A stretch of DNA of 63,147 nucleotides, filler included, from Phoronis australis (Eukaryota > Animalia > Phoronida), in the NCBI GenBank assembly GCA_002633005.1. It is 5 parts of 5 records of this genome, joined end to end, with 100 filler letters (N's around TTAATTAATTAA, not from the genome) between each part and the next. Parts side by side here need not be neighbours in the genome. Positions count along the whole stretch, not along the records: positions 54,237 to 60,690 come from NMRA01000532.1; 4 more parts are not named here. One strand, 5' to 3'. Positions 12,801-63,147 of this stretch are shown one piece after another. The translations under genes were made by a program, and so were the position numbers. Numbering within the stretch: position 1 is the first letter of the stretch; every line of letters starts with the position of its first letter. The notes under the pieces were generated by a model. It saw nothing but the letters and a program-made list of their open reading frames with translations, had not been told where the DNA came from and searched no databases.

Positions 12801-15800
12801 CGTTAGGTTAAAAGGGCATAGTCACTCAAAATCACTACACATGCCAAAATACCTGTACATCAAATAAAACGTTCTATAGATAGACCGAAAAGTGACGACA
12901 TTCAATGATAAACAATAATTAAGATAATGATGAGTACGTTGAATGTAATGATAATTGTGATGGTGATCATTGTTATTCGGGGATCGGAATGTGACAAATG
13001 AAGGCGTATGAGAATTGCAAAAACTCAGTCAAATCCACTCCCCCAGTCGCCACAATTTTATTTCACCTTCGTCACCAATTTCAAGCTTCTTCTTCTTCTT
13101 CTAAATCTTTGTATTTTCTATTGGCAAGGTTCTTATTGTGGGTGAATATAATGCAATACTGGGAAAACAAAAAATAACAAAAATTATGTCATAAAGAAGT
13201 TGACGCACCTAAGGAATACCAGTACGAACGCACGCCGGTGGTCAAACTTGGCAAAGACTCTTCCAGATCCACAAAACTATTCCAGTCTACCGTGACGTAA
13301 GCATTAGTTGTCAAAAACCCATTAACTGCGTTTGTGACAATTACTTCACCAGGTATAGGACTGTTTGTGTCAACTATAAATCCATTGCTGCATAGGTGTT
13401 CTGTTGTATCCTCTACGCCGTAAAAAACCGGTTTCCTTGGGAACTGTGCATGGACGCATATGAAGTATTTGACGCCATGTAATAATTTGATGTTTGGTAT
13501 CAACACGTTGTTTTTCGAGTTCTTCAGAAACGCAATGCACGAAGGGTTACTGGAACAGTTTATAAAATGGTCTGGAATGGTTGCCACAGACCACGTATAT
13601 TCAGAGAAAAGTTTTCCAGTAAGAAGAGCAGTGGCGCTGTCCGTTATATTTGTGAAGTCTAGTTCCGACCTGTGGAGGTCTTTCAACGTTTTCGTTTGGA
13701 CACTTGACGCGTGCGCTACTCCAGCAAATCTTTTAATGTCTTTATAACAGAGATCGTGTACTGCTTTATCGAGGGCTGTAGTTGTCGCTGATTCAAATTC
13801 AACCTTTTTTACCACCACGGAATAAACATTCGATAGTGACTGTCCTCTCAGAAGAACGTACATGCGTTGTAGCCTGTGATGGTTCCAGTGAAAATTGGCA
13901 GTGTCCTAAAACACAAAAGAATGAATCAAGAGTGCCGAATGAGTCTTTTAACAATTTGAATTACGCGTAATAACGACAAATTTTTAATGACTCACCTGAG
14001 TGCTATTATAAACAGCAATCCAATAGTTTCCAACGTCTTTCATTTTGTAACTGGGCGAAAGAGTCCACTCATATCTAATCACTTCTTTATTCGTGATCCC
14101 GTGATCTACTCGAAAATTTTGCCACCGGATTGAAACCTCCGCTGTGTAATTACCGGAAGTTCCTGATAAGTAGACATTTGTAAAAATATCACCAGACGTA
14201 GGAATGCTTGGGGTAACAATTACACCGTTTGAAATTGACGGTGACATGCACACCTGATGGAAACACGGGCGAACGTGTAATCTGTATCTGTTTCCGGGAG
14301 CGAGGTTCAGGTTATGGAAAGTGGATCTGTGTTCCCTTTGTACTTTCCAAGGCAGTAAGTCACCCACACTAACACACGAAGGCGAGCACGCTTCTATCGA
14401 CACTTTGCTTTCGTAGTGTGTGACATGTTTTTTAATATCTATGGGAAAATTCCAGTACCCTGAAATCATTGTTGTATCGGACTGGTAATCAAGGTCTATC
14501 TGACACACCATAAGTTTGACAGAAATCACCACCAGTGTAGTTTTTGCGTGATTGACGACATCAAAAACGTATTCTTGATTTTTCCACTCGAAAGTAAAAA
14601 GCACGCGGTGCGTAGAGTTGTCGGAATCAAAATGCATCGTCTTAGCTGATTCGCCGTTTTGAGTCACCGTCACATTTGAAAGATTTCCATGACTTGAGAG
14701 CTTAATGGTGAAATACGAACCAAAGAAAGGAACGATTCCAGAAAATTGAAAGGAAAATTTTGATTTCGGGTTAATGGAAAACCCGTTTAAACTCTCAAGG
14801 ACTCTTGATTCGTCGCAACCGATACCGTCGAAAACGGCCACAGACATCTGGGACATGGAACCACTAAATACCATCGCGCCGTCGGAGGAAACAGTCACAG
14901 GAAGCGACTGAGCTTGGTCAAGGCTTGCCATCACAGTCGCATAAGTTTTTGTGAAGTCTGGCATCTTTGGCAGGAAGAAACATGCAAAGTTATCTCCAAA
15001 AATAGTGGCGTTCTGAATGGGTGTAAAATCCATGATGTCTGTGCAGTTGTCTGAAGTTCCCAAACCAACAGAGTAATGAATACGGCCATTATGTGTGTGG
15101 AATCCTGCCCACGCCACGCAGAATCTGTTCCCCTCTACATAATCAACATCATTCAGCGTGCCAATTACAGGGCCAGGACTAATGTCATAAACAACCCCGG
15201 CAGTCGGGCGTAAAGCTGACGATATTTGAAATGGAGGCGCTTTAAAGACACTGTAAAGCCCTGCTTTGTTAAACACTTTCAAGGCTACAGTGTAGGTACT
15301 TCCAAATCCATCATCAGCATCCTGAAGAGGTCGCTTTTCAATTTCAATTCCAACTCTCCCTTGGCAACAGATGGTTTTTGGTGTAAATGCTTTGAAATGA
15401 GCGACGGCTTGGTTGTGTTCGTCAGTTCCTGCAACAAGTCATTGTTGTCTGTGAAGACTCCATCAAATGGGAATTAGGTAAAATTAATACAGTATATGTA
15501 CACGGTTAGGAACTTGCACTTATTAGTGAAGCTGCGCCTTCATTGTGAATCATATCCGATTATGTGTGAAAAACTTGAATAAACCATATAAGAGCGAAAC
15601 TTGCGTTAACCGTTTGTTAATGCCAGACATTGGTTTGTTCACAGGAAAAGTGAAAAGTACTCAAGAACGATAGGAGTTACGTACTAGAAGACTACAAGTT
15701 GGGTACGCATAAAGTTTCGAGCTTGCTGCTCATGCCCTTGTTCACGACTGATCTTCTCGCCGTTGTTGAACCTTAAGTAACACCTTGTCTGAACGGCGGG

Positions 15801-18800
15801 AAAGTCTGTCACGTGAACAAGGGCCTAAACTACAGGCTCGAAACTTTATGCGCACCTAGCTTATAGTAAGTAACTTCTATAGTTTTTACCATCTTCACAC
15901 AAGGCAACGATGATTTATGAACACTTTTAACTTAAAATTACTAGGACGGAAAAAGAAAACAAACACTGACCCATTCCAAGACATAAGCGCAAGCAAATAA
16001 TAAATACTTGCCTCTTTAAGTGAAACTTAATGCGCATGCGCCTACATGCGAAACATCTGAGCGAACATTCTTTGGAAAACGCACATTTCAGTCGCTTATG
16101 TGTGGTATTGATATCATCAAACGAAAATTGATGTTCAAGGAAGATTGCATAGCAACAGATTCAAGGGACTCTTTTATACTCTTTCTGTAATTTATACCTT
16201 GATTTTACGGATAGATTTAAATCCCACTTAATATAAATGTACACCAGCCTTAATCACCAATTTTATGTTTGATGGCAACCATGGGCAAAGTACCTACAAG
16301 TACAATGACCCTACTTTGACACTGAGTGGGGGGAGGGTGCCAATTTGAAATGAGTACCCTTGCCATGGTAACCAGGTAGTTTGCCAGTCGAAATGAAGAA
16401 TGTCAGCATTGCTGGCAAATTCATGTTAGAAGTAGGGAACCAGCTTGCCAAGAATATTTGAATTGGTCCTTTTGAAATTTAAAGCGTACTGCTTATCTGA
16501 ACCAAATATCGGTAACCAAGTATTTTCGCAATCACGATAACGAGTTTTAGGCGTAATGGCAGTCGTGTTTGAAGACAGGCAACCAAGTTCAAATCATTTT
16601 AGTGACTTTCCCCAAAAGGTAGACGAGTGTCAACGTTGCACGTGCAAGCTTGACACTTCCCTAAATAGAATTATGAAAACGTTATAAAGTTTGATGATCT
16701 TTATATGTGAGCTTTGCAGCCCCCGTCATTTTGAGTGATTGCGATACGTGTTGCGTGCTTCTAAAATGACTCATAGCAAAGCTTTATCTAAAAGACACCA
16801 AGGTTGACCTTCTGACCATATGAACGATTTCATTCAAACTCTTGTTTATTATACGTACCAATTGCTATCTGATACTCTCCAATGCCGTCTGAATACTCCT
16901 CATCGTAAAATGAACCATCAGCCCAGGATACAACAATGGGGTCACCATGTTTGAAGCCCATGTCAACTTGCAAAGTACCAACCATCCGAGGGGGTGTCTC
17001 ATCCACCAGAATAGGTCCAAATGAGAGCTGGCTGTGAAGTCCAGACTCGCTAATGACAATCATTTGAACGGATATTTCGTTACCTTCGTCCAGTCCAGAA
17101 AATATTTCAGTAAAAAAATTTGCCCCACGCGTAGATTTCATTCCGGAGAGGTCGGTGCTGACGCCAATTCTGTAGTCGTGAATTGGTGACGAATTGGATG
17201 TTTTCCATTGAAGACGAATGTGGTCCGTAGTTATGAACTTTGGCAACGACTCGTTGTAAAGGGAATTGAGCTTACATATATCTTCACTTGTCTCCCTGTC
17301 CATTGCTGATCCATTGGTTGATGATGGGATAACAGGAATGAGATTGATGTCGACCTGCACTTTGTCTGAACATTTCATCCGACATGCAGTGACTGGTGAC
17401 AATCGCATTCTCGTGAAATTACGAAAAACAAACCAAATTTCACGTTCACTGATGTTAGTGCAAATAATCCCTTCATGGACACGTAAACCATTCAAATAGA
17501 TGTCTCTGAATTTAGGTAGTACGCTGTCCACCTGTACACCATCAGAGCACGCAGGCTCTGATGGTTCGTTGGCACTGTTATATGCTACAACACTTAGGTA
17601 GTATTTACCATCTTTGTTGGCAACACCAGTACCATGTGAAACTGTTGAGTTTTTACCAACTAAGCCTAATTCTTGTTTCGAGAGGCAGCGGTCAGCAAAA
17701 GCATATTTGTAGTATGAAATTCCACTTTCGTGGTCATAAAAGCCATGCCAGATGCCAGACAGTGTCATGTCACTCTGGTAGTCGACATCTGGTTGGGCAT
17801 CTAAGTTCCCGTCACGAGCGACTCCTGTGGTTGGCGGTGACGCATCTATTAGAATTTTGACCGAGTACGGCGCAGTTGCTAAAAGAGCGTTGTTCCTTGC
17901 AATAAGCGTTATGAAGTACTCGCGGTTGTGATTTCCCTTATGTTTTCTTGCCTCAAATAGGTGGTTAAGGTCAATAGAGTAGTTCAAATACTCGCATTCC
18001 GCACCAACGACTGTAGGACAATACTTATTTTCACCATTATCGGGTGCCTAGATGAATGCAACAGCTTAAATTAGTGTACGCAAAATTCCACAAATATTAC
18101 ACTAGCGGTGCTAATGGGAAAATGAAAAGTAACGACAGAATCAAAGTTCCTAGCAATAGGTTACAGTTTGCGTAACGGTTATGAGGCTTTGACCAAACCT
18201 AAAAGACAAAACATTCTGTCCTACGTCCATTAACCTACAGCAATGCCAAGGGAACTATTGCTACATTTATTGGAACAATTCGAATCAGAATCGCGCTCAG
18301 GGCTGTTAACACAAACGCACATATGTGAGCAAAACCACCAAATGCAAACCCCGTTAGATAATGAACAATTTGTTCAATGTACGGGAAAAATTGAGGCCAG
18401 CATGCGGTATCGCAATTATGCAATCGGTTTCCAAACCACCAACTGTCACGTTTTACCAAAGGAAAGTAATAATCAAAGCACGACCGTTTGCACAGCCTTT
18501 CGAAATACACATTGATACAACTTTTGTTTCTATAGCGTTTGTTTTGTTGGGTTGCAGAAAATGTCGCAACTTCAAAAACTAAAGTGATCGTTAAATTACA
18601 ACAGTTTGTTCAGACCCTTCAAAACAGAAAACTTGCCATAAAATTAAAACGCAATTGGGCAAAATGACTAGTTGCGGAAGTCTTCACAGTCTTGACAGTT
18701 TGTTGCCTTACACTACTTTGTCGAATATAGGTATAAAGCCTACTTAACAAAAGTCGGAACAAGGTCTACCAAGCATATTACCTTCATTTTAAATGCAAGG

Positions 18801-21800
18801 TAGATAAATGGATACGATCAGTATCAGGTGTAGAAAAAGTACAATTTGTTAGTACAATACGTGAATTAAATATTTGTACGAAACAAGCCCTAAAATACGT
18901 GGGAACTTACAGACTTCACCGGAAGAGAACCTTCGCTTATATCGGCAGCATCTCGAGATGTACCCAACTTCCATTTAACATCGTGCAAACCGCTGTGAGC
19001 ATCCATCGCTTCGAAGACGAACTTCATGGTTGACAAATCAGTTTCGAAGTGAACAAAGAGCTCTCGAAGACCGTTATTTGTAACTCCGACGCTCGAAAAC
19101 AATGGGGGCGTGGAATCGACTTTGAGAAACACGGTGTCGTTTTTAGTGTTGCCCATTATGTCTTTGGCTTGAATCATTATTTCATAACTATCGCCGTCCT
19201 GCATTGCATTGTCTGTATTGTGTGTGATCATCGTCTGTAAAGGACTGGGTAGACTTATAAGGTTGTTGATAGACTTTGGTATCGACACAATGGCGTACTT
19301 GAACTCTACAATTCCATCAACATTAGGCGTACCTGTTACTGGAAGGACACCTGTACCTTGATCATATATGCCAGTCAAAACTACGGAAGAATTGCTAGCA
19401 ATAGGTTTCAACATGTTGCTGTGTACGTGGAAAGTATTGTGAAATCGTCTCGTCCACTTAACAGTCAAGGGGCCGTGTGTTGTTTGCCAAGCAAAGTCCG
19501 TATTAGGATCTGCGGTGGTTACGACAATTTTGTGCGCTTGAGAAATTTCAACTGTGGAGTTTGGATCACAAAGAACAAAACGTCTTGCGTGTTTGACGTT
19601 GCCGACCTTGTCCACTACGTCCACATATACAGCATAAAGTCCTTGTGAAGGCAATGTAAGCTGTAGAGAACCGTGTGTTCTGTTTGTCTTTTGTGAGACC
19701 CCTTCTTTACTGCCGATTTGGTTGACATAACGGGTCTTTTTAACTACTGTGTATACATTGAATTCCAGATGATCAATGCCGGATGCTAACTCATGATTTC
19801 CAGAAGTCGGTATTGGATCTAACCATCCGCCAAACGTCACTGTTATTGCCGGATTTCTAGTTATACGTGGGATTACGTCGATAGGGTAAGATGATCCAGG
19901 AGCACAGCTATGGCTTTCCGAACAATGTATCGGGGCTGCGCTGTCATATGTCATACAAACAGTTTTGTTGGTCCGGGTGGATTTGAAATATTTTCTTGTT
20001 GAGTTGACTGACCCTGTTACCAGATTTTTCGTCAACAAATAGCCACCTCCCTCAACCTGATAGTCGACGCAATATCTTTAAGGAATGAATGAAACTGCTC
20101 TTTAGAAGTGCATCTGACATACATAATCAATCTGTTCAATGCAATTTAAGTTGGTACTAACGCAGAAACCTGACTTCACGAACATCAAAGATTTGAAGTA
20201 CCAGTGAAACAAAATATCGGGTTAATTAATAAGCGTATTGCAATGGTTATTAAGACATTGCTAGCACTCTCATGGGCTCCGGAACTGATAGCCACAAAGC
20301 TGCCGGGAGTCATTTTAAAGACTCCCGGCAGCTGTAGATACAAAGGCATAGTTGTCTCTGTGACATTTGTGCCCTATCTTGTTGATTTCTCACATTTTGC
20401 AGAACGTTTACCAGAGACAAAATTAAATAAGGCAGGGACATTTTTACTTAACTCAAACAAGCCTCGTAAGGAAGGGCTAGCGGCATTCAAGTCAGTGATC
20501 GAGAAGTTTGCCTTTTTCAATCTTCAGTGGTCAAAACAAACATGGACATGTCATCATAATCTAGCGTGTCACCAGGTGGAATAGAATTTCGGATGCGACA
20601 CCTCGTCAACCGCGACAAGCCGCCAGGTAGTAAAGACTTGACTGCAACGTAGTCGATGTACGGCCATGCAGCACTTAACCCGAATGATAGCTCACTCGCG
20701 TAGCTTGTCACGTGTCAAGTTTGGAACTGACGTGCGCTTGCAAGGGTACACGCAGTAGCGGACCTAGGATATCATAGGGGGGAGGCAACAGTTTGTCTCA
20801 GAGAACCGCGCAACGCCACCCTAAAATATAGGGCGGCTCAAAAAGATATAATAAAAAATAAAAAACAGGAAACCGATTGCGGTGACACTTCCAATAGGAC
20901 CGAGTCACCCCACATGCGCACGCCCAAACTTGTTTCAGCTGCATGTTAATTACCGGAGTTAGTTAAGGAACACAATATTTCCTCACGCTCTGGCTGTTTT
21001 TTTCTTGCAGCCAACTTACCTCCCTAATTCCGCCTATGACACGCATTGTACCCCTTTACGTGCATTCACTATTTAATCTCCTACATTGTACCTTTCTTGA
21101 TTTTTCTAAGTTGCGTTTATGAAATTGTCTCAGATATGCCTTTAGGTACACATTATCCGTTTTTTACAGATTTTCAAACATAATGCCCTGTAGTTTTCAT
21201 AAAAGAACAATCAGTTTCATTTCAATCTTCAAATTTCTTCATATTCACCAAAATTCTCTTTTTCATCAATTTTGAGCCCGGACAACGTATACGAGCGCGT
21301 TCAGGGTTTTCCTGACTTAGTCGCCGAAAGTTTGACGTGGAAAAAGAAGAACATTATCTTGCCTCATCGTTGTTTTAGACTGGACGCTCAGAGCACTTAG
21401 GATGGATGAACAAATACCAACATCTAAACAAACGAGCACTCTCCAGTATGTACAAACATTGATCTCCGCCTATGTCTCCACTTCGTAAGGTGCCGGTCAA
21501 AACTGATTCAAAATGAATAGTCGTGCCACACTAAGCACTGAGTGAATCCTCATGGCGAACAAACTGCACTTTGTAAAGTTCCCCCCAGAAAATCAAAAAC
21601 GAAGGCTCCGAAAAACATTCGAGGCGTCACGAGATGAAGTCTGTGATATCATACTTATCAATAATGCGTGTAATTGCAAGCCAATGAACATCAAGTCTTG
21701 GATGATCAATGACACATGTTACAAGCACGAAAATATTGGAGACTTTAGTTATTACATACTTATCCACGAACCGAGATCTCCGTAACCCACAGACACGAGT

Positions 21801-29819: not shown

Positions 29820-30964
29820 AACCTTTTTCCATGTCATTTTGAGCTAAAATAAGGTTGGTTGGTTATCCTAGACATATTTTCCACTTAATTACAGCTTTTT
29901 GTAATTTTATTAATTACTCGTCCGCTACTCCGGAAGTGACGTTTTAGGAGGCAAGCATTTCGCGCCAATTTCTTTTCATATAGTCTGACTGTGAGAGCTG
30001 CCGAGTCAGTCATTGTTCTACCTCGGTTGTGTTAAGTTCCGTCGTCGTTTGCTTCCATTTATTAGTCAGTCAACATGCCACACTGTTGCTGCGTACCAGA
30101 ATGTACTAATTATCGGCTCACGTGCGCTTTGGGAGTACTTTTGCATCGCTTTCCGATGGATGACACACTTCGCCGTACTTGGCTCGTTCGTGTGAAGAAC
30201 GCAACGTTACCCGTCCACGCAACGTACAAAGCAGTGGAGAATTACCGTGTGTGTGGCAAGCACTTTCTGCCNTGTACTAATTATCGGCTCACGTGCGCTT
30301 TGGGAGTACTTTTGCATCGCTTTCCGATGGATGACACACTTCGCCGTACTTGGCTCGTTCGTGTGAAGAACGCAACGTTACCCGTCCACGCAACGTACAA
30401 AGCAGTGGAGAATTACCGTATGTGTGGCAAGCACTTTCTGCCCTCCGGTTACGAAAGGGATTTGTACGCTGAACTGATGAAGGTCCCTGCGAAACAACGT
30501 CTGAAGAAGGATGCCATTCCGTCTGTGTTGATTCCCGGGAGTGCCCCGTCGCCACCCCCGAGAAGTGCGTTTGTGAAGCAAGAAACCTCGCGAGCTGTGG
30601 CCAGTAGAGTGACTGGAGCCAGTGGAGGCACTTCATCCACTGTCACCCGTGCCTCCGAACGTACCCCAGAGCGTGCAATTCCTGGAACCAGTAGTGATTC
30701 GCCCTGTGCTGTTTTCTTCAGCCCAGAGCCTCTAAGCAGCCCTGCAGCGATATTGAGTAGTGGGAGTGATTTCAGGCTCAGTTCGACACCAAGTGAAGAG
30801 GACAGTTCGTCGTCCAGTGAACAGATCGGTGAGCCAAACTTTGATAAGTTTATTGTGGACTTGGCTAAAGTCTTAGAGCTATTTAGATGGTGTCAGGTGT
30901 GTGGCGAGGGAGTCACACGACACGATGTAAGCAGTTTGGGTGCTCAGGTTACCATCCAGTGGGA
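29820..30964 (+). mobile_element. Kolobok-like DNA transposon, left part (runs into an assembly gap)
   Basis: The first ~290 bp match the terminus of the TTAA-flanked element at 58860 (terminal ~10 bp missing), followed by the THAP-transposase ORF. Confidence 0.7.
30075..30964 (+). CDS. THAP-domain transposase N-terminus (Kolobok-like), 3'-truncated by gap
   Basis: MPHCCCVPEC...HRFP...W...VCGKHF...AIPS is a THAP C2CH domain, followed by a Ser/Pro-rich linker and KFIVDLAKVLELFRWCQVCG...LGAQVTIQW. The 171-bp internal duplication at the single N is probably an artefact. Confidence 0.75.
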
Positions 30965-38300: not shown

Positions 38301-41300
38301 TTTCTTTCCGGATAATGTTACTTTGAAAAACTCAGCTGTGACGACATCTTATCTGTACACAACTGGACTATGATCATCTTCGGTCATTTTAATATCACGC
38401 CAAAATTTCCGGTATTGGTTAGCATTTGCAGAGAAGCTGAAATGGGCATCGTCGACAGAGGTCACAGGCGCTTTGAACGACATGCTATTGAAAGTTGGTA
38501 TTTAGAAGTCTTTGGCATTAAGTTTGATTTTTTTGCCCCACAGCCTACGTTAGCATGAGAGGGGTATCAGTTAATGAACTTTGAAGTGCAGTGATGGTCT
38601 TTTACTTACGTGACATGAAACAACACATTTCTGGAGCAGGCATATAGGGATGGTCATATATTATGTCAGTGGGAAGACTTTGTCGTTGACTTTATCCTCA
38701 TTTTGAAGCTAAGCCGATGTACGCAGTATCACCGAAAGTCAAAGGGGGCATATTAGTAAGAAATGTTGAGAGCGACGTGTGGCCTTGAATGAAAGGGAAG
38801 ATTGTTGGTGTCTGAACATGCAGGGGTTGACATGACCGTCAAACATTGGACAGCCTCTATCTCATCAACGGATTACTTAAGGGTTTAAAAAGCTTGATAT
38901 TCATGGAAACCAAGGCTGGGACACGCAACTCTGTCGTTTATTTTTGATGATTTAGAGGCCTGGAACTGTAAATGGTTGGTGTGAGTCTTTCTGTTACCGA
39001 CAGCTACTTTTTGTTGAGCAACTGGCAAGTCGCAAGCAAAAGGCAGTTGGATACTCGTCGTCTTCTGGTTCTGTATGTTTGGAAAGAACGACTGATCACC
39101 CGTACAATGGTAAAGCTAATGTTGAAAATGGATTCGTTATCCAGGCCAATATTAAGAGGTAACGCCAACCAAGACCGATAAATTTATTTGCTACGTGAAA
39201 TCACGTGAAACGGCAGCATATGAAGAAAAGGGAGATAATGCCAAAACGAGTATCTGCGGTAACAAAAATCATTAACTGACGTTATGTGTGACATATCAAT
39301 CTATATAAAGAAGTAAGATTGCTTTCTTTGATGACTTATTACACTTACACGATCTGTTTGGTAGGCAAATGCCAGTTTTTTCAGGAGAAGATTGACAATG
39401 TCCAAGTTACCACCCAAGGCTGCATAATGCAAAGGAGTTGCTTTTGACTGCAATGGAAACGTAGGACATTGTAGGTAAATTATAAAGGATGAAGCGACAG
39501 TGGTAATTAGGTAGCAAATTAATGGCTTGAGTGTGATTTGATGCGCTCGGTAACATTTCATCAAGTCTACGTATCAAAATAATTTAAGAGAGACGCTAAA
39601 ACTTTACGTATTCAAACTAATTATTTTCTGAAAGTACAATCTACTCGAAGCTCTGTTTATAATATTTAGAAATGAAAGTAGGTACTGCAAAACGAGAGCA
39701 ACGATATTAATATCAAATTTCATAAAACTGCTCAAGGTGAGTTCCCAAAAACCGCTACCAAGTTTTTAAGGTATGTACAGTTTTCGTCTCATGGACATTT
39801 TGAGAGATTTAAAAAAATGTTAGAAGTCCTAGCGATATAACGTTATGCAAATGTATAGATTCTACATTTTACTTATCGAAAAAACACTCTTCATGCTATA
39901 CGCACATAATCCTTCACGTAAACACCTGATCCTTCTTTCAGCAGTAGTTTGACGATGTCTGGATTACCTCCCAAAGCTGCATAATGAAGGGGAGTCGCAC
40001 CAGCTGTCTGTAAAGCAAATATTTTTGTTTAAAGTCTTTGAAAATTAAACATCCCTCCAAAATACTTATTATATTAAAAACCTTCATTATCAAGATTAAC
40101 AAAATCTGGTTATTGTATTATGGGGTGATCTTCCTTTGTGATGTTATTTCAGTCTCGGTTCTTACGAACGTTCAGTTATTCATAAGTGGCGTAAAAGAAA
40201 GGTTACTTTAGATAGCTCCCCTACCTTGCAATATCCAAGACCGGCCAGTGATTGTAGTACAGGTAAAATGTTCATGTCTTTAACGCTTTCTAGGCGTTTA
40301 TAAGACGCTATCCAGTACATGTTGCTTTCAAAAGAAACCGGAAACGCAACTTTTGAAAACAGCGGTCCTCCGATTTCATAGCAGGCTGCTATAACGTTAT
40401 TTTCGACAAAGTTACAAAGGTGAGTGGTTCCGCTAATATCCTCGAGTCTAGAGCTACGTGTATACACCTGATTCGTGACTTCAGTAAAACTATTAAAATG
40501 AGTGTTGATACCAGAAAGGCAATTTAAGCTTAGTTTTGACAATGTTAAAATCTTAATGATGAATTCTTATTTAAATCATCGCGTTGGGATTTCAAAGCAC
40601 TACCACACGTGTCCTAAACCGAATTGTGACTTATTGAGTCAAAAACAATCACTTGAAAAGATTGTCGCTCCAAACTCCTGAATCTTGAAATCATACGTAC
40701 ATGTACACATCTCAAACAATTCTTGCATCACTTATCAAACCCAATTGCTTGAATTTAGTCATGATTGATGCAAACCAAAGACAGGAAGGTAATGTAAGTT
40801 AAATGAAACCTTAAAATTCTGTGTATAAAAACATATTAACGGTTACAGAAGAAGTAAAAACGGTAAATATCTGGAAACATTAACTTGACCCATGTTTTAC
40901 TCACATGTATATTTAAGAGGACCTGCAGTCCCCGGTCCCAACTACGGATGCAATAAAACTATCAAGTAAAAACACAGTCACCAAGTTGGCTTGAGGACTT
41001 TCATCCCCGTTTTTCTTAAGCAATTTAATCTTAGGTCCCAGTTTGTCACCATTCAGGCCCCAGCGTGTCACAATTCAGGCCCAAGTGTTGTCACTACTCA
41101 GGCCCAAGTGTGCCCCGATTCAGACCCCAGTGTGTCACCATTCAGACGCTAACGTGTCACCATTCAGGCGCCAGCGTGTCACCATCCAGGCACCAGTTTT
41201 TAACTACTTAGAGCCCAGTGTCTCACCATTCGGGCCCAGTGTGTCACCATTCAGACCCCTGTGTGTCACCATTCAGGCAACAGTATGTCACCATTCAAGT

Positions 41301-48072: not shown

Positions 48073-48870
48073 GCACTTTATCTACTGTCACCCGTTCCTC
48101 CCAACGTACCTCCAGCGCGCGCAACTCCTGAACTAGCAGTGATTCGCCTTGTGCTGTTGTCTCTAGCCCAGATCCTGTAAGCAGCCCTGCAGCGATGTTA
48201 AGCAGTGGGAGTGAATACAGGCCCAGTTCGTAGACACCCGGTGAAGAAGACAGTTCGTCGTCCAGTGAACAGATCGGTGAGCTAAACTTTGATAATTTTA
48301 TTGTGGATTTGTCTATAGTATTGAAGCTATTTAGAAAGTGCCAGGTGTGTGGCAACGGAGTCACGCGGCGGGATATAAGCCGCTTGGGTGCCTGTGCTTA
48401 CACATGGTCTCATCATACTCGGGCTCAAACATGTACCCACTCACCGACTGTCCGTGAAAAAATTCGTCACCACTGTTATGAACAATACATGCGTCGCTCA
48501 CGTCACTACTGTCACTGTGATGATATGGGTGCCGATTCCAGCCATTTTCAGGTTACCACGAACTAAATAATCCCTAAATCCAACAAAACTGAGAACTTTG
48601 ACAACTTAGCTGGTCGTAAAACACTCGTCGATGGGAAGTGATGACGACCATTTTAGAAAAACAGCACGAAAACAAGAGTAGGACAGATTCTCAAAGTAAA
48701 CTCAACGCAGAACCAAATTGGGGCAAAATTCTTGCCTCCCAAAACGTCACTTACCGAATTAAGGACGAGTAGTTAATTAAATAACAAAACGCTGTGATTA
48801 AGTGAAAAATATGTCTTGGATATTCAACAAACCTTATTTTTGGTAAAAATGTCAAGAAAAAAGCTTGCCG
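48073..48870 (+). mobile_element. Internally deleted Kolobok-like element (transposase relic, convergent second-gene relic, right end)
   Basis: 48075-48390 matches 30640-30940. The minus strand of 48390-48545 reads HSDSSDVSDAC...GQSVSGYMFEPEYDE. 48725-48870 is an inverted copy of the family terminus. Confidence 0.68.
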
Positions 48871-53798: not shown

Positions 53799-54061
53799 TT
53801 ACAAGTACATATTCTTGGTCAACGTATTTTCACACGTTGGAATCTGTGACGCCGGCACATATTTATACTTTGGCGTCTGTGACGCAGGCGTCTCCTCCTC
53901 AGGGTTCCTTATCTTTACAGGCCACGTTTTTTTGGCAAATCTTCCTCGGACCAGTGTCAACATGTCAGTAAAATGTGTGGACCTGAAGTTCTCTGCAACC
54001 ACGTCACAGAATTCGGATATGAAAACAGAACCCTTAAGTGGATTTCGAAACGCAAAATGAC
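53799..54061 (-). CDS. Caspase (peptidase C14A), terminal exon encoding most of the p10 subunit
   Basis: ttgttgcag|GT CAT...: (G)HFAFRNPLKGSVFISEFCDVVAENFRSTHFTDMLTLVRGRFAKK...ASQIPTCENTLTKNMYL*. This matches the p10 pattern G-x3-RN-x3-GS-x-FI...DML-x2-V...Q-x-P-x4-TL-x-K-x2-Y. No QACxG exon is visible in the window. Confidence 0.8.
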
Positions 54062-55108
54062 CTGCAACAAAAATTCATTGTCAATTTAATGTAGGCCAAT
54101 ACACACATTGTTGCATAGGCGGATTTAGGGGGGGGGNNNNNNNNNNNNNNNNNNNNNNNNNNNNNNNNNNNNNNNNNNNNTTAATTAATTAANNNNNNNN
54201 NNNNNNNNNNNNNNNNNNNNNNNNNNNNNNNNNNNNTGAACTGATGAGCCGGAAATGTGGGTACGGAAATAACCGATGACAACCGGTAATCATACGCTCA
54301 GAGAGAAGGGTCAAATACTGTTAAAAATCGCTTTTGGCAAGAAAGGCGAAAAGAATATAAAGAAAGGGTGTCGAAAATAAGAATTTATGTAGTAAGTATT
54401 TTCGGATACTGGAACCACATGGGCAGTTTGCAAGAAGGACTTTAACGGATTCGAATAGCGAACTATGCATCGGCGTGAACATGATGTGGCTCGGAGGTTT
54501 CTAAATGTTTAAAAATCACCGACCCGTTTACATTTACCATGGTCTACATAATTTTGCTATGAGTCACAGTCGTGCAGTGTTGTAACTCTGGATGGCAGGG
54601 ATTTATCGGAGTGGGTCTTCAAATAAACTGTCGCAGACGTTGTTGTATGGCCGCGCACAGAAAGGTACCTGCGATCAGAGCCATCGTACCAAGGAAACTG
54701 TAACTCAGTTTAAAGGTCAACGCTGTTTACCTCACACACAGTTAGCAAAATACTCACAGACCTGCTGCTTACGTTTGCAGTAAACATCGTAAATATAGTG
54801 CACATAAAATACGTATGACTGAGATTTTTTGTTGTTAGGTGATGCAAAATTTATATTTCGTTGCCTGCCGAAAGTAATCGTGAGTTGAAATCCTCGCGGT
54901 TCATTTTGCCACAGGCTTGAGTCATTGGCCGTGCTCATTTGAATTCAGTACACGGAATAAATTAATTAACTATGCATTTGCGGCAAAATACGCCTACGAA
55001 ACGAAAACAATGAATTCATTGAAAATGCCTGATTATTTGTTGGGCAACACAGTCCTTCCCTAATTCTATAATGGACTTTCGTATTTTATATGACATGAAA
55101 TATACGCC

Positions 55109-55292
55109 CTACTACCACTACCACTACCACTACCACTACTACTATCACACCCACTACCACTACAGCTACCGCTACCACTTGCACTGCCACTCTCACTGCC
55201 ACTACCACTGCCGCTGCCGCTGCCACTGCCACTGCCACTCTCACTGCCGCTGCCACTGCCGCTGCCGCTGCCGCTGCCGCCGCCACTACTAC
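55109..55292. repeat. Compound triplet/hexamer microsatellite (TAC/CAC grading to TGC/CGC)
   Basis: CTACCA repeats grade into CTGCCA and then CTGCCG. Confidence 0.92.
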
Positions 55293-55444
55293 CCAGTTTA
55301 AATCGGTGACATGTCTAAATAAATAGCTATTTTTACGGATGGTGGATTTTTAAGAGCTTTAACTAAAGTCATAAAATCTGTTTTCCAGCATCACGGTAAT
55401 TAAACAATTAAAGGAATATACCTCTGCTCATGTACGACTTTCGG

Positions 55445-56330: not shown

Positions 56331-57015
56331 GCCCCTATTTGGTTCACAAATTCTTGATAATTAAAATTATGATTGGAATCACCAATTGTTTGAAGCAAAA
56401 CCCGTTCTAAAGCTTTTGGTGTATTTCGGGTCAGGCATGAGACATCCGAGGAATCCTGAAACAATCCTGTGCTCGTGTGTTGTTAGCGTTGTTCCTATGA
56501 CGACAGTGTTTGGTTGGAACTTTTCCGGTTCCGTCATTGTTATCGAATGTCGTCTGATTATATGAACCCGTTACACTTACGATGCATTGCCTGGTTTGTC
56601 TGGCGCTGCATCTTCTTTCCATCCCAATCAAGCCCAGATATCATCTCATCTGATGTTCGGACTCGGGAATAACCGAAAGTTCTCTCATAGCTCGAGGACA
56701 GAGCAGGTCGCACAAGTTAGCTCAGTTCTGCGTATTGTTTCATGGTTGGATCAAGGCTTCAGGCCATTGTGAACTTCAGTTTTTTCTAAGCGCGTGTAAT
56801 AGTTCAAAAATGAGTATGGAACAATGTGAGACCAGTTTCATTACGCTATGTGGGCTAAATCAAAAGTTAATTTTGGCTGATTTTCGGATTTTTAAATTGC
56901 TGTAGTTTGCAGTAATGTCTGACAGCTCGGGCAAATGCAATTTTATCATGGGATGCCAAATTGAATCATGGCTTTGAACCGTAGCTTTATATTACTGAAA
57001 ATCTAGGCGAGACAT

Positions 57016-57120
57016 TGACGTCATTCTTCCCGTCACCCTTTGATAATAAGATAGATACCATGTAGAGCGTATCTAGGGTTACTTTATAAAATGATCTACA
57101 TTGCCGAATATCAACCATTC
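57016..57120 (+). promoter_or_regulatory. Core promoter of the secreted peptide gene
   Basis: Palindromic CRE TGACGTCA at 57016-57023, GATA motifs at about 57041-57058, TATAAA at 57085-57090, Inr-like CCATTC at 57115-57120 (A is 32 nt after the TATA start), ATG at 57155. Confidence 0.6.
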
Positions 57121-57154
57121 TGGTGGTGGCTAACGGGACATCTCATCGAACGCA

Positions 57155-58601
57155 ATGAAACTGGTAAGAATCTTTTGAGATGACAGGTCGTGTATTCATC
57201 GGTTTCAAACTAATTTCAAACACGATGAGCTGTATGTCGAAGCTTTGTTATTGTTAATTATTTTGAATTAAGACATAGCAATGTGATTAGTCGTGTCAGT
57301 GGTTAAGCAGTAAAAGTTCATTTTCTTACTTTTTATCGTCGGAATCGCTCAATTTTTGCAAAAAATATTTTCCTTTTTTACCACTGAAAACACAATTCGT
57401 TTGTTGAGATTTCAAAAATAATCGTAAGTGAGAAAGTAAAAATTGATGGAAGATCACAAAATTTCGTTTTATTAACACTAAAATGTGTTGTGCTTAGTTC
57501 AGGTTAAATATCAAATGTTAAAGTATGAAGTTGGATAAATCAATGTGGAATGAATCTGCACACTCAGACTGTGCGCACACAGCCTAAGAAATAGGGGGCT
57601 CGAATTTTTGAGAAGGTGGAGCTTTTACTGAGATTCACGGGATACATTTAAAGCTATTAATTGTGGAATCTTTCATTACCACAAAAGCTATCAACAACCC
57701 ACTCTCACCGCTTGAGGGAATACCGATGAACATAATGACTCGTCTATAATTAGTTGTCAAATACTTATCAAAATCTTATTTTCGAACTGATTAAAACTAA
57801 TTGTACGAGCAGCGTTTAAGGGAAAATCGTTTTACGAGCAAAAAACGCATCATAATAATAATTCTTAGAAACAAGTACTTATGAAGATATTACCTTCGAT
57901 CAGTCTATGGACAAAAACTAGTTTTGTTTTTTAATTTTATTACAAATCACCAATTAATGCCGTTGTCTACGAGATATTCAACGAAATCAAGGCGATGTCT
58001 TTTCCATTTAAGTACTCTTAAAATACGCTGTTATTTATCGAATAGGATTTAACTCTGCCACACCTTCTAGTCTACCATTGTCACTATTTCATTGGGTGCA
58101 AATTACGAAATTATTGCCCGGTAAAACGGGCTTCAGAGGATTTAACGTGGCAGTTCATTTGTCAACATATCCACTATTCACATTACCTGAGTATCGTTTC
58201 CTAGATCTTCGTGTGTGCTCTGTTTGTCTGTGCTATCGGGCTTCTCCGGGCTGAAGAGGCCGAGGTTGGTGATGCTTATGACGCTGACTTCGATAGTCGT
58301 TCACTGGAAAACGATATTGATCAAAACGATAATGAAGATCCCAAGCCCTCAGATTTCAACGCTCGCTTCCTGGAAAATGCTGATGAAGGATATCAGTCAG
58401 ACCTTTCCGTTCGTTCCGAAAGTGACGTCAAGGATGACGACAGGAATGCAGACGACGACATGGCTTGAAGAACAACAGAGGGGCCCTCACTGGAAGATAT
58501 GCCACGCGAGACAACGCCCCATTCGGGTCGTCAGGATTCGATGGCGCCGTTACCGACTCAAAAGACCCGTGACCATTTCCTGGTGTCGGCAGATCGGGTA
58601 A
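57155..58601 (+). CDS. Secreted prepropeptide, putative cationic beta-hairpin antimicrobial peptide precursor, with +1 frameshift at about 58466
   Basis: Exon 1 is 57155-57163 (ATG AAA CTG|gtaaga); exon 2 starts at 58205 (ttcctag|ATC). Signal peptide MKLIFVCALFVCAIGLLRA plus acidic propiece runs to TGA 58466-58468. The +1 frame continues EEQQR-GPHWKICHARQRPIRVVRIRWRRYRLKRPVTISWCRQIG*. Confidence 0.72.
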
Positions 58602-58665
58602 GCAAAACACATTCGATCAATAGGGCATTAGATCCAAGCCGCCTGTCAAAAAGAAAAAAAAATCG

Positions 58666-58671
58666 AATAAA
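58666..58671 (+). terminator. Polyadenylation signal of the peptide gene
   Basis: AATAAA 65 nt after the TAA at 58599-58601. Confidence 0.55.
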
Positions 58672-58859
58672 AGCACTGATTGCTATACTGGGAAAACACG
58701 TGTGTTATCTGCTAGATGGATTGAACAATTGATTAATGTGCTCGTTGTCATCCAGCTCCTTACAAGGATTAGAACCAATTTTCAATGATTAGGAAAGACA
58801 GTCGTTACTGGTTGAGATCTTAAAATATCTCGTCACGATGGCTTAGTTTCAGATGTTAA

Positions 58860-59750
58860 AGGCGAAGGCAACCTTTTTTCACGTCATTTTTAGCAAAAAT
58901 TTGGTTCGATGATTATCCCAGACATATTTTCCACTTAATTACAGCTTTTCGTAATTTGATTAATTATTCGTGCTCTACTCCGACGTGACGTTTTGGGAAG
59001 CAAGAATTTCGCGCTAATTTCTTTTCCCATAGTCTGACTATATGAGCGTTCTCGAATCAGTCATTGATTTACCAGTCGTCGTTTGCTTTTGTTTACGAGT
59101 CAGTCAACAGGCCACAATGTTGCTGCGTACCGGGATGTACTCATTATGGCCTAAAGCCTGTAAGCAGCCATGCTGCGATGTTGAGTAGTGGGAGTAAATA
59201 CAGGCCCCGTTCGAAACCCAGTGAAGAGGAGAGTTCGTCGTTCAATGAACAGGTCGGTGAACCAAACTTTGATAAGTTTATTGTGGTCTTGTCTAAAGTA
59301 TTGGAGCTGTTTAGAAGGTGCCAGGTTTGAGGCGAGGGAGTCACACGGCGGGGGTGTAAACAGTTTGTGAGCTCAGGTCACTATCAGTGGGAGTGTGTCG
59401 CGGACACTCGGGCAAGTGGGACAGTTGCTCCTCTGTCCGTTAGACGATAATGAGTACATCCCGGTACGTAGCAACAGTGTGGCATGCTGACTGACTCGTA
59501 AACAAAATCACACGATGACCGAGCTTATCAAAATCGAGATAGAGCAATGACTGACTCGGCAACTCTCACAGTCAGACTACACGAAAAGAAATAGGCGGGA
59601 AATTTTTGCCTCCCAAAACGTCACTTCCGGAGTAGACAACGAATAATTAATTAAATTACGAACAGCTTTAATTAAGTGGAAAATGTGTCTGGGATAACCA
59701 ACGAACCTTATTTTTGCTAAAAAAGACATGTAAAAAGATTGCCTTCGCCT
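58860..59750 (+). mobile_element. Complete non-autonomous Kolobok-like element, 891 bp, TTAA TSD
   Basis: TTAA|AGGCGAAGGCAA ... TTGCCTTCGCCT|TTAA. Inverted repeats of about 290-300 bp (58860-59147 / 59447-59750). Deleted THAP-transposase relic CCCVPGCTHY...KFIVVLSKVLELFRRCQV...WEC..GHSGKWDS. Confidence 0.85.
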
Positions 59751-60059
59751 TTAAGGCTGTATGGTTTTACGTGATGTCACTGAATTCAGATAAAGGCCGG
59801 AGAACGTGTTGATATTGATTTGGAATAGTGTGATGAATGTTGGTGTCTTTATCACCTGAATTGGTTTGAAACCGACTTCAAGTATGCACAACTCCTAAGC
59901 AATGAATCTATTAGTTAAACTGCTCGGAAATATTGGTTTCAAAATGCACGTTGTCTCGCGGACAACGGGGCGCAGGTTGTCACTGACTGGTGTTAATAGC
60001 TTTCGGGGCTTTGAAAGACAGAAGACTGGGTAATTTTGACCGTATATACGCACGTCTAG

Positions 60060-60260
60060 TAGAACAAAACGTCCTACGTAATGTCTGTTCTATGCTGCAG
60101 CCACTGCTGCGAAGCCACGGCTCAGTCACCTCCACCAACTGATACACTCGTTGATTCAATAAATGCCAGTCTCTGCAAATGGCTACTGCTGATTCTTCAA
60201 CTGCACCTCAACTGAACCTTTTACTACATCTATATCTTTAACTCTTCAAAGATCAAGTTT
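60060..60260 (-). repeat. Diverged fragment related to the solo LTR at 61424-62179
   Basis: The reverse complement GGCTTCGCAGCAGTGGCTGCAGCATAGAACAGACATTACGTAGGACGTTTTGTT matches about 61989-62042. Confidence 0.6.
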
Positions 60261-60519
60261 GAGTCTAATACTTACAAAAATTAGTGACGTTACGTCCGCA
60301 TCTCACGGACCAAAGCTTGGCTTGTGACGTTATCGTTATTCTTGCCAATTGGTGGCGTTTTGGCCAGACTATGTGGCATTGACGTCAGAACACCATCACA
60401 TACGTGTGACAAATCGAATCTTAACCCGCCTCTTTTATTTAAAGAGGGACTCTCAATGCGCTCATGTCCTTTTACACCCCTTCTGAACCAATCTGTCTCA
60501 AATTAGACGCCGTTAATTG

Positions 60520-60641
60520 GCCTACACATACATATCAATAAACAAACATGCATACATAGATACAAAAACGCATACATACATTCATTCATTCATACATACA
60601 TACATACATACATTAAAAATGTATAAATACATTAACTGCCA

Positions 60642-60675
<34 letters not shown>

Positions 60676-60690
60676 CATACATACATACAT
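60520..60690. repeat. (CATA)n microsatellite running into gap
   Basis: Imperfect tetranucleotide run. Confidence 0.92.
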
Positions 60691-61423
60691 NNNNNNNNNN
60701 NNNNNNNNNNNNNNNNNNNNNNNNNNNNNNNNNNTTAATTAATTAANNNNNNNNNNNNNNNNNNNNNNNNNNNNNNNNNNNNNNNNNNNNCAGGTACGGC
60801 CTTACTGTTCTTCACGACCGCCATTGAAAGACTCTAGAGCGCAAGGCAAGTTGCCGACGTGAAACTTTTGAATCAGTGCTCTCTAACTGACTTGTGCATT
60901 CGAGTAGCTAAATTTGGGATGTGAAAAGGGAGAAAATGCCCGTTGAAAAAGTATCCGGGATTTTGTTAGATCTGGCCTGCTACTGGCTGTCATCAAAGTC
61001 GTTAAAGATTCAAACTAACTTGGGTAACGGCAAGTTTGCTCTTCAATACCTTCCAAGTACGGAAAAAATAGGTCAGTCACAAAACGACACGCATGTCACT
61101 AGTGTTAACTTTCTTTCCGAGGTATAAAACAAAGCCGGGATTTGGTTTTACATATTATGAAAAGAAGTTTTTAAAACACAAGTTGTGTAAAATGAAAGTG
61201 ACACACCATATAAGCTGCGTGTCAATTTTAAACCACACGCAGTCGTTTGTAGTGCGCTATGATGGGCGCTAGCTTGAACTGTGGGCGCTTAATTGGAAAT
61301 TCTCAAAATTTAAGGGGGGACTTTTAATAGATCAGTGAGCGCTTATTATGAAACACTTTAAAGGTAGGGAGTAGGCTAGTGCGTGAGCAACGTCGTTAAC
61401 CTCAGTGTTTGCGGTAATAAGAT

Positions 61424-62179
61424 TGTCAGAATATAGTCTGACAGTATTATTAGTTGTATTGTTTTGTTTTGTTATTCAGTTTGATTGGCATGACCCCGAG
61501 TTAAGTACAGTGATGATGTAATTTGTTTACTACAAAATAGTGTGGAACTTTCTAGAAGACTGAGGTCAGAACAGTGATGATGAAATTTGTTTACTACAGT
61601 ATAGTGTGGAACTTTCTAGAAGACTCTAGCATGACAATGATTAATGCAGTCTGAAATATTCTAGAGACTAGTACATGTTTGTAGAATGATTGGGTAGGTT
61701 CCAGAAAGTTCTGGTATGTGCTTGAATTGATGAAAAGTTCCAGAACAATGCGTTAGGCTATAAATACACAAGCATGGGTTTGTGTTAGTCAGATTAAGTC
61801 AGTTGAGTCCAAGAAGATCAAGTCGAGAGATCAAGTGAGTTCAAGTAAGTTAATCAGGAGAACTACAGTTGAGTTGCAGAATCAGCAGTTACAGCAATAG
61901 TCAATAGAGAGCCAGCTATAGAGACAGCAGGTTATTGAATTGAGTGTAACAGTTGCTGGAAGTATCTCAGAAGTTCAATACAAGTCAAGGCTTCGCAGCA
62001 CTGGCTGGAGCATAAACAGACGTTACGTCGGACGTTTTGTTTGAGTAGGCTTGTGAACGTACGGTCAGGATTAATAAAGGATTAACTCGAACCAGTCTTC
62101 AGNTCAATCTTCGCACCGAAAGCTATTAGCACCGGTCTGTAACAACCTGCGCCCACCCACACACGGGGAAAACGTGACA
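61424..62179 (+). mobile_element. Solo LTR, 756 bp
   Basis: TGTCA...TGACA termini; flanks AAGAT/AAGGT (4/5 TSD); U3 tandem duplication 61507-61561/61571-61625; TATAAATA at about 61759; AATAAA at about 62073. Confidence 0.6.
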
Positions 62180-62800
62180 AAGGTAAACTACGGAGATTGG
62201 AGACCGGGCGCAGGGCTTAGAGAATGATATAAGGTAAACTACTGAGAAGGCAGGTGCAGATGGTACAATGGGAACTACAGAAAGGGCATGAGCTAATTAT
62301 AACGTTTAACGTCAATAAACATGTGCTGCAGAGAAAACGGGATTACGACAGATAGCTTAGCTGAAATTGAAAGCGTTCCAATTTCAAAGCTGCTTCAGCC
62401 AAAAAGCTGAAATCACTTCAACTCTAAGTCAGGCCGACTTTAGACCAGTTCCAATAATGATAGCATAAGGTCTTGAGCAAAAATACACGTCATACCTGTC
62501 GTAAAGTCTGTTTAGAAAACCTGATTCCTTCTAGCTCCAACGATGAGAATTTTATCAACTTCGTTTGAAAGTCACTGGTGACTGACTGACTGGTCGTTTT
62601 TCGTATGACGCTGGGGAAAACCCGAGCTGACTAAGTCCCGGGGGCCTTTGAAAACCCCAGCAGTGTAAACAAAGTTCGATATTGATTGGCATGGCCCTTT
62701 TAGAAATTTGGCCTTTGTTCAAACTCAATGTGAAAGACGGTTCGGGTTGCAGGCAGGTTGTTATCGGCCATTGTTTGGCAGATTGTAAAACGACTCTGAA

Positions 62801-62887
62801 AAAATAATCATTGACATATCCGTACAGGTATTGCATGGCAAAATAATCATTGACATATCCGTACAGGTATTGCATGGCAAAATAATC
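62801..62887. repeat. 39-bp tandem duplication (2.2 copies)
   Basis: AAAATAATCATTGACATATCCGTACAGGTATTGCATGGC x2. Confidence 0.92.
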
Positions 62888-63147
62888 GTAAAGGTGTTGT
62901 ATAGAGCACCAATTAGCGCAGATATACAGGTGTTACATGACACCTGAGAAAGCAAGAGAGAGAAGGATTGTTCTTATCATGCAGTTTGTAAGTGATCAGT
63001 AAGCACGGTCGCAACCAAACACCAAAACATAAGTACTCAAAATTTTCTAGACATTTCCAATATTTTTGCTGCAAATGAAATGTACTGGCATAAGTGAGTG
63101 TCGTGGCTTAATAATTTATGGTGCCACGACACAATCCAGTTTCAGTT

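Follow-up and report, generated by a model that had tools for sequence, protein, structure and literature searches.

The window, by which we mean the whole stretch of 63,147 nucleotides of Phoronis australis DNA that was analysed, contains a small spliced gene whose features all lie on the plus strand. Exon 1 (57128..57163), defined by 5' read ends and spliced reads, comprises a short 5' leader and three codons (57155-57163), intron 1 (57164..58204) is 1041 bases long, of the GT..AG type and phase 0, and exon 2 (58205..58597), defined by read depth, encodes the rest of a hydrophobic leader peptide, an acidic propiece and the first 38 residues of a cationic domain. The ATG at 57155, the three-codon exon with its GT donor and the acceptor at 58204 can be seen in the sequence itself. 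In two RNA runs (X6 and X7) the 5' read ends are concentrated at 57128-57134, and a TATA-like box, TATAAA (57085..57090), stands 43-49 bases upstream of the commonest of these ends, which is further than usual unless the reads fall short of the cap.

Six of the eight runs from one organism (X1, X3, X5, X6, X7 and X8) were used as read evidence. X1 and X3, which come from one study, may be the source of the window and, as samples, cannot count as independent of it. Although its listing gives probable DNA, X3 contains spliced contigs and behaves as RNA; its library kind thus differs from genomic DNA. An earlier note on this DNA had proposed a hidden spliced gene, staked on reads that join 57163 to 58205, and such stranded reads are present (78 in X6 and 376 in X7). 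The two exons that it had envisaged have become at least three, since reads leave at 58597 for an exon outside the window. The gene is strongly and unevenly expressed across samples: first-mate sense-strand depth over exon 2 is approximately 180-210 in X6, 730-920 in X7 and 0-1.6 in X8, a gap of more than 100-fold among three runs of the same study with 11-13 million records each. Contigs of X3 and X5 run through the acceptor of intron 1; retention of this intron was considered and rejected, given that contigs drop minor joints and that the mean depths fit a deep exon followed by a shallow intron.

Several other loci share the window. A very large gene of fibronectin type III repeats with long exons occupies 4469-20077 (-), and its best relatives, 36-39% identical, are found in bivalves, then in lancelets and hemichordates, and in some bacteria too. 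An ankyrin-repeat exon (PF00023, E 3.7e-6) lies at 39304-39573 (-), and a simple repeat with a six-base period and long low-complexity frames on both strands lies at 55066-55349. A caspase-domain exon (PF00656, E 4.5e-9) at 53802-54074 (-), which adjoins an assembly gap, precedes the peptide gene by about 3 kb and is a possible immune neighbour of it.

The exit from exon 2 changes the view of the product. A consensus phase 2 donor of intron 2 (58598..58603) is marked by loose ends in 84 (X6) and 361 (X7) reads and by an X3 contig that leaves the window at 58597 with a depth of 114.5 and continues for 90 letters past the junction. Depth inside intron 2 is approximately 4 in X6, 30 in X7 and 5 in X3, so that about 92-95% of transcripts are spliced at this donor, as roughly estimated from counts relative to depth; the unspliced share is larger in the X5 contigs (52.9 of 95.2). 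The 30 exon-3 letters shown finish a Gly codon and continue for nine stop-free codons, which include a third Cys at position 42 and give a Cys spacing so far of C-x27-C-x6-C. Because the donor is mostly used, the stop codon, the Gly and the AATAAA that had been taken to end the gene fall away from most transcripts: the peptide extends past residue 39, and the Gly regarded as an amidation donor is internal in spliced transcripts. The AATAAA is indeed present (58666..58671), but it lies within intron 2 and is apparently unused, as X7 depth across it (29, 27 and 22) does not fall. The cationic domain is therefore at least 48 aa long with at least three Cys and runs into exon 3, in place of the 39-aa amidated single-disulfide product formerly proposed. 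As its C-terminal part has been seen for nine exon-3 codons, the domain may be much larger or otherwise folded.

The exon-3 start letters were not found in the window with up to three mismatches, and exon 3 may be located within a gap or on its far side. An assembly gap at 60691-60790 has a 12-base all-frame stop spacer inside its Ns, and contiguity past it may be artificial. A THAP-domain element (PF05485, E 4.9e-23) and related fragments were observed at 30066-30962, 48073-48391 and 59149-59392; one THAP fragment sits in intron 2, between an inverted pair at approximately 58856-59154 and 59440-59754.

The precursor begins with a predicted 19-aa signal peptide, the exon-2 part of which spans 58205..58252. 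The hydrophobic leader described earlier was recovered from the sequence, with a mean hydropathy of 3.0 over the first 14 exon-2 residues and, by eye, small residues at -1 and -3. At 58236, 675 of 875 X7 reads carry a leader allele with Thr in place of Ile. Reading the window's own frame gives the 71 aa with 26 Asp/Glu previously reported, ending at the stop codon 58466-58468; in the intact frame the acidic propiece (58253..58481) is 76 aa long by count, including the residue at the break, with 28 Asp/Glu and 7 Lys/Arg, and three D-[FL]-x-x-R units can be read in it. Its net charge is approximately -21, and that of the cationic domain is +12 in the first 38 residues. The propiece ends in LEEQQR (58464..58481), a predicted single-Arg processing site that is unchanged in a sister copy of the gene.

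The Arg-rich part had been described as standing one base out of frame. It does belong to the acidic precursor, but the frame break is absent from most reads. The single extra base at 58462..58463 is missing in 187 of 187 X6 reads and in 720 of 721 X7 reads, and the X1 and X5 contigs likewise lack it; two X8 reads span the position and are not counted as lacking it. In these reads and contigs, the acidic propiece and the Arg-rich part consequently form one frame. An assembly error was rejected as the cause of the frameshift, since an X3 contig (depth 90.7) that has the extra base aligns to 58170-58597 without a single difference or gap. We infer that the window holds a real broken allele, a natural frameshift null, whose premature stop codon, 58466-58468, is 129 bases upstream of the next junction. 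This allele would yield the acidic part alone.

The exon-2 part of the cationic domain (58482..58597) contains 12 Lys/Arg, no Asp/Glu, 3 Trp, Cys7 and Cys35. These counts agree with the 39-codon Arg-rich frame first noticed at 58482-58598 (10 Arg, 2 Lys, no acidic residue and 3 Trp). Over all six frames, the window contains 16,595 stretches of 39 codons without a stop; 22 of them, in four places, reach a net charge of +12, and among these 58482-58598 alone has 3 Trp and 2 Cys. The Arg-rich stretch is more than chance. No second copy of the gene was found within the window. The symmetry of Cys7/Cys35 and of Pro13/Pro29 about Trp21 is present in the window, and both symmetries occur jointly in just 0.2% of shuffles, by a test chosen after the fact, but the prolines are not retained in the sister copy. 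The X1 contig and 641 of 899 X7 reads carry an allele with Gly in place of Arg20 (58539), a residue that adjoins the conserved Trp21.

In-frame paralogs, which the earlier note had called decisive, do exist. At 80% likeness, a second exon 2 was found in all four runs examined for sister copies, with its own intron acceptor in an X1 genomic contig. The sister copies number one or two: X5 contains two sister forms, a difference that may reflect either a third copy or allelic divergence. The sister copy is dominant in X3 and X5 (depth of approximately 1400-2400 versus 90-95 for the window's copy) and minor in X7 (approximately 150-200 reads). It is in frame, and its propiece is seven codons shorter (148 versus 169 letters). 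There is no difference from the window's copy in 58464-58483, which spans the candidate cleavage site. Over 58464-58553 the two copies show 16 differences, 7 silent and 9 replacement (pN/pS 0.37, Fisher p 0.04), and in the core from Ile14 to Tyr24 (58521-58553) all six changes are silent and at third positions; the p of 8e-5 for this stretch overstates the case because the core was picked out once the data were known. Codons read by hand across the leader and the beginning of the propiece give 12 differences, of which 2 are silent. The excess of silent changes in the core indicates that the Arg-rich frame is under purifying selection, which answers the main doubt raised at the outset, namely that the frame might be chance and homologs might conserve the acidic part alone; the sister conserves the cationic core better. 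It also keeps Trp4, Cys7, Trp21, Leu26, Val30, Ile32 and Trp34 (codons by hand). The last four of these, Leu26, Val30, Ile32 and Trp34, fall in the ten codons past the core and form an every-other-residue pattern, which is typical of a beta-strand. The sister replaces both prolines and gains three acidic residues in the domain, and its first 34 domain residues carry approximately +8, compared with approximately +11 in the window's copy, a point against an antimicrobial role.

The first exon may be common to the window's copy and the sister copies. In sister-copy reads, the exon-1 letters match the window in 25 of 25 shown, whereas exon 2 differs by about 14%, and these reads reach into exon 1 with the same median as those of the window's copy. 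The X1 genomic contig with the window's copy extends unbroken for 2890 bases upstream of 58170. A second exon 1 with at least 30 identical bases should break this contig, and a common first exon was hypothesised on that ground; the argument depends on how contigs are simplified and built. Separate genes with a conserved 5' exon are about as likely. In its fullest form, the proposal would be that one promoter and the three-codon exon 1 are spliced to alternative tandem cassettes, each encoding one long disulfide-tied Arg/Trp antimicrobial peptide of an undescribed family, with a sample-dependent choice and a null allele segregating in one cassette; we put this forward tentatively and regard it as doubtful on balance.

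The beta-hairpin that had been envisaged drew no support from structure prediction, which gave low-confidence models, and it is not established. A single-sequence AlphaFold2 model, built without exon 3, paired strands 5-10 and 32-37 and placed a helix at 14-24 (pLDDT 63, pTM 0.24); a second model with six more residues, also without exon 3, had no secondary structure (pLDDT 56). The strand propensity of the core (1.28) exceeds its helix propensity (1.00), and beta-type amphipathicity was not significant against shuffles in seven stretches (best p 0.07). A Foldseek search with a low-confidence model returned no match. Since Cys42 is present, a Cys7-Cys35 disulfide is plausible but no longer forced.

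Searches for relatives gave no homologue in Pfam, PDB, 5.8 billion proteins or 1.84 billion representatives. Pfam returned just TMEM210 on the leader, at E 0.08 and below its cut-off, and PDB sequences returned one Fab chain at E 1.1 in one search and none in a second. The cationic part compared with longer proteins gave one candidate and none at E up to 10, and exon 2 read through gave two candidates, none of which scored. The ESM Atlas yielded no usable match, a result that indicates neither absence nor novelty. None of 418 pattern matches in metagenome contigs and none of 8 in viral contigs was confirmed, and Rfam gave 0 matches over 56500-63147. The one match among the 1.84 billion representatives, P0077 (E 8.8e-4), was rejected as chance: it is a singleton with tandem repeats, five of which add up to its score, it has no leader and no Cys at matching places, and it partly matches residues that the sister drops. 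In the literature, we found no description of this peptide family, and supplements could hold transcriptome-mined lists that contain the peptide; of three short motifs searched, two were absent and the third occurred in eight papers unrelated by title. The blank is weak evidence of novelty, as the collections are thin for short animal orphans and the queries were short.

Comparison with known systems was more informative about layout than about kinship. The Hydra peptide arminin has an acidic N-terminal part. According to parts of two published accounts, periculin-1 and arminin of Hydra and the strongylocins and centrocins of sea urchins combine a signal peptide with a cationic, often Cys-bearing C-terminal part, and periculin-1 and the urchin peptides have an acidic N-terminal part, all as in the present precursor (PMC10608444, PMC11767717), and an anionic propiece that neutralises a cationic peptide is an established AMP layout in the sections of those sources concerned with it (PMC10608444; PMC11767717 on periculin-1). 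The gene has a spliced 19-aa leader that is hydrophobic by hydropathy, and in intact alleles the acidic propiece shares its frame with a C-terminal cationic domain of 12 Lys/Arg and no Asp/Glu. The propiece here has 76 aa, compared with 15-30 aa in the urchin peptides; no sequence similarity to the Hydra and urchin precursors was found, and the partial spacing C-x27-C-x6-C is not among the Cys spacings named for these peptides in the sections concerned (PMC10608444, PMC11767717). The precursor layout is thus known, and the gene family itself is undescribed.

Other families resemble the gene in part. The domain resembles the arenicins, capitellacin, alvinellacin and HfBRI peptides of polychaetes in being C-terminal, cationic, Arg/aromatic and Cys-bearing, with alternating Val/Arg-like stretches; however, a Pfam search up to E 1 detected no BRICHOS domain in the propiece, which is devoid of Cys, the ring is longer than in BRICHOS-related beta-hairpin AMPs, and a single Arg precedes the cationic domain, in contrast to the dibasic site that HfBRI precursors have in a partial account of them (PMC10745061). 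As in ALF of crustaceans and horseshoe crabs, a cationic aromatic loop lies between two Cys and ends in Trp-Cys, and by analogy the mode of LPS binding would likely resemble that of ALF. ALF, as outlined in a portion of PMC3701609, is built of a 22-residue loop and three helices, contains two Cys and lacks an acidic propiece, whereas the present domain has a 29-residue ring and a third Cys, gives no Pfam or PDB match to the family and has a 76-aa acidic propiece after the signal peptide. By these features the gene does not class with the arenicin-type or the ALF families. The myticalins of Mytilus, in the part of PMC12294457 that describes them, are likewise lineage-restricted, three-exon, multi-copy cationic genes with frameshift alleles, and null alleles and pseudogenes occur in this invertebrate AMP family; unlike the gene reported here, they have no Cys, a non-coding exon 1 and a C-terminal propeptide (PMC12294457).

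Taken together, the layout, the near balance of charge, the conserved Arg/Trp core, the duplication and the high, uneven expression are best fitted by a masked, stored precursor. We consider it fairly probable that the gene belongs to a putative family of undescribed anionic-propiece cationic host-defence peptides, and its product is likely a new antibacterial peptide, longer than earlier thought. Every step past translation we infer to run as follows. The hydrophobic leader would route the protein to secretion, and the acidic propiece would mask the cationic domain in the stored precursor. A cut at the single Arg would free this domain, which may then fold as a disulfide-tied, probably beta-rich loop, and its Arg and Trp residues would bind and disturb anionic microbial surfaces such as LPS, lipoteichoic acid and anionic lipids.

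The third Cys fits another reading, in which a larger, disulfide-rich secreted domain begins with the cationic stretch as its first loop; this could be a three-finger (Ly6/uPAR-like) domain with an unusually long Arg-rich first finger, and the product would then be a receptor ligand or pattern-recognition protein rather than a free membrane-active peptide. Cys42 in exon 3 comes six residues after Cys35 and is followed by hydrophobic residues, and since the count of Cys is odd, further ones are to be expected downstream. Three-finger proteins have a similar Cys-long loop-Cys-x6-Cys start, although this fold does not typically have a first loop of 27 residues or an acidic propiece of 76 aa. Measured against a Ly6/uPAR domain of 60-90 residues with multiple disulfides, the gene shows three Cys, with exon 3 seen for 30 letters, and its exon-2 part has neither a Pfam nor a PDB match. 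Domains of this type occur throughout invertebrates in the relevant part of PMC13719153, which favours the larger domain, but the charge of the propiece fits the masking of a cationic effector, and we judge this reading unlikely.

A secreted venom, deterrent or cytolytic peptide, directed against predators, prey or competitors and made by the same acidic-propiece route, would also account for the high sample-restricted expression and the duplicated copies. In toxin families the mature part usually diversifies fastest; here the core is conserved, and Pfam gave no match to a toxin family. Venom peptides share the layout in the portion of PMC6832493 that deals with their precursors, which counts against the antimicrobial reading, and the spider processing quadruplet motif defined there (PMC6832493) is matched by the Arg at -1 and the Glu at -4 of the present site. 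This motif, however, is short, insufficient for membership and, by the same partial account (PMC6832493), rare outside spiders. A venom role appears quite improbable. A structural secretion, such as mucus, adhesive, tube, cuticle or a coat of eggs or sperm, whose acidic blocks associate with the basic ones and whose cationic domain stays in the precursor, would suit the block-wise opposite charge, the orphan status and the very high sister contig depth in X3 and X5 (approximately 1400-2400). The small size, the conserved putative cleavage site and the conserved Trp and Cys look instead like a folded effector, and the propiece tolerates replacements and a seven-codon change of length; a structural role is very unlikely. 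The 39-residue amidated single-disulfide hairpin of the earlier note could still arise from transcripts that keep intron 2, where the stop codon is in frame and which amount to about 5-8% of the donor signal in X3, X6 and X7 and more in X5, but it is scarcely credible, as intron 1 depth is similarly low and intron 2 depth continues beyond the AATAAA, as pre-mRNA would.

The gene is of a kind that gene callers miss; with a broken reference allele, annotation would record it as a small acidic protein or overlook it altogether. The natural null allele, together with the sister copies, offers a ready test of function and redundancy. A common first exon, if confirmed, would be an unusual route to diversify defence peptides. 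If the peptide is active, an animal lineage without a close annotated genome would have supplied a new natural scaffold for cationic antimicrobials.
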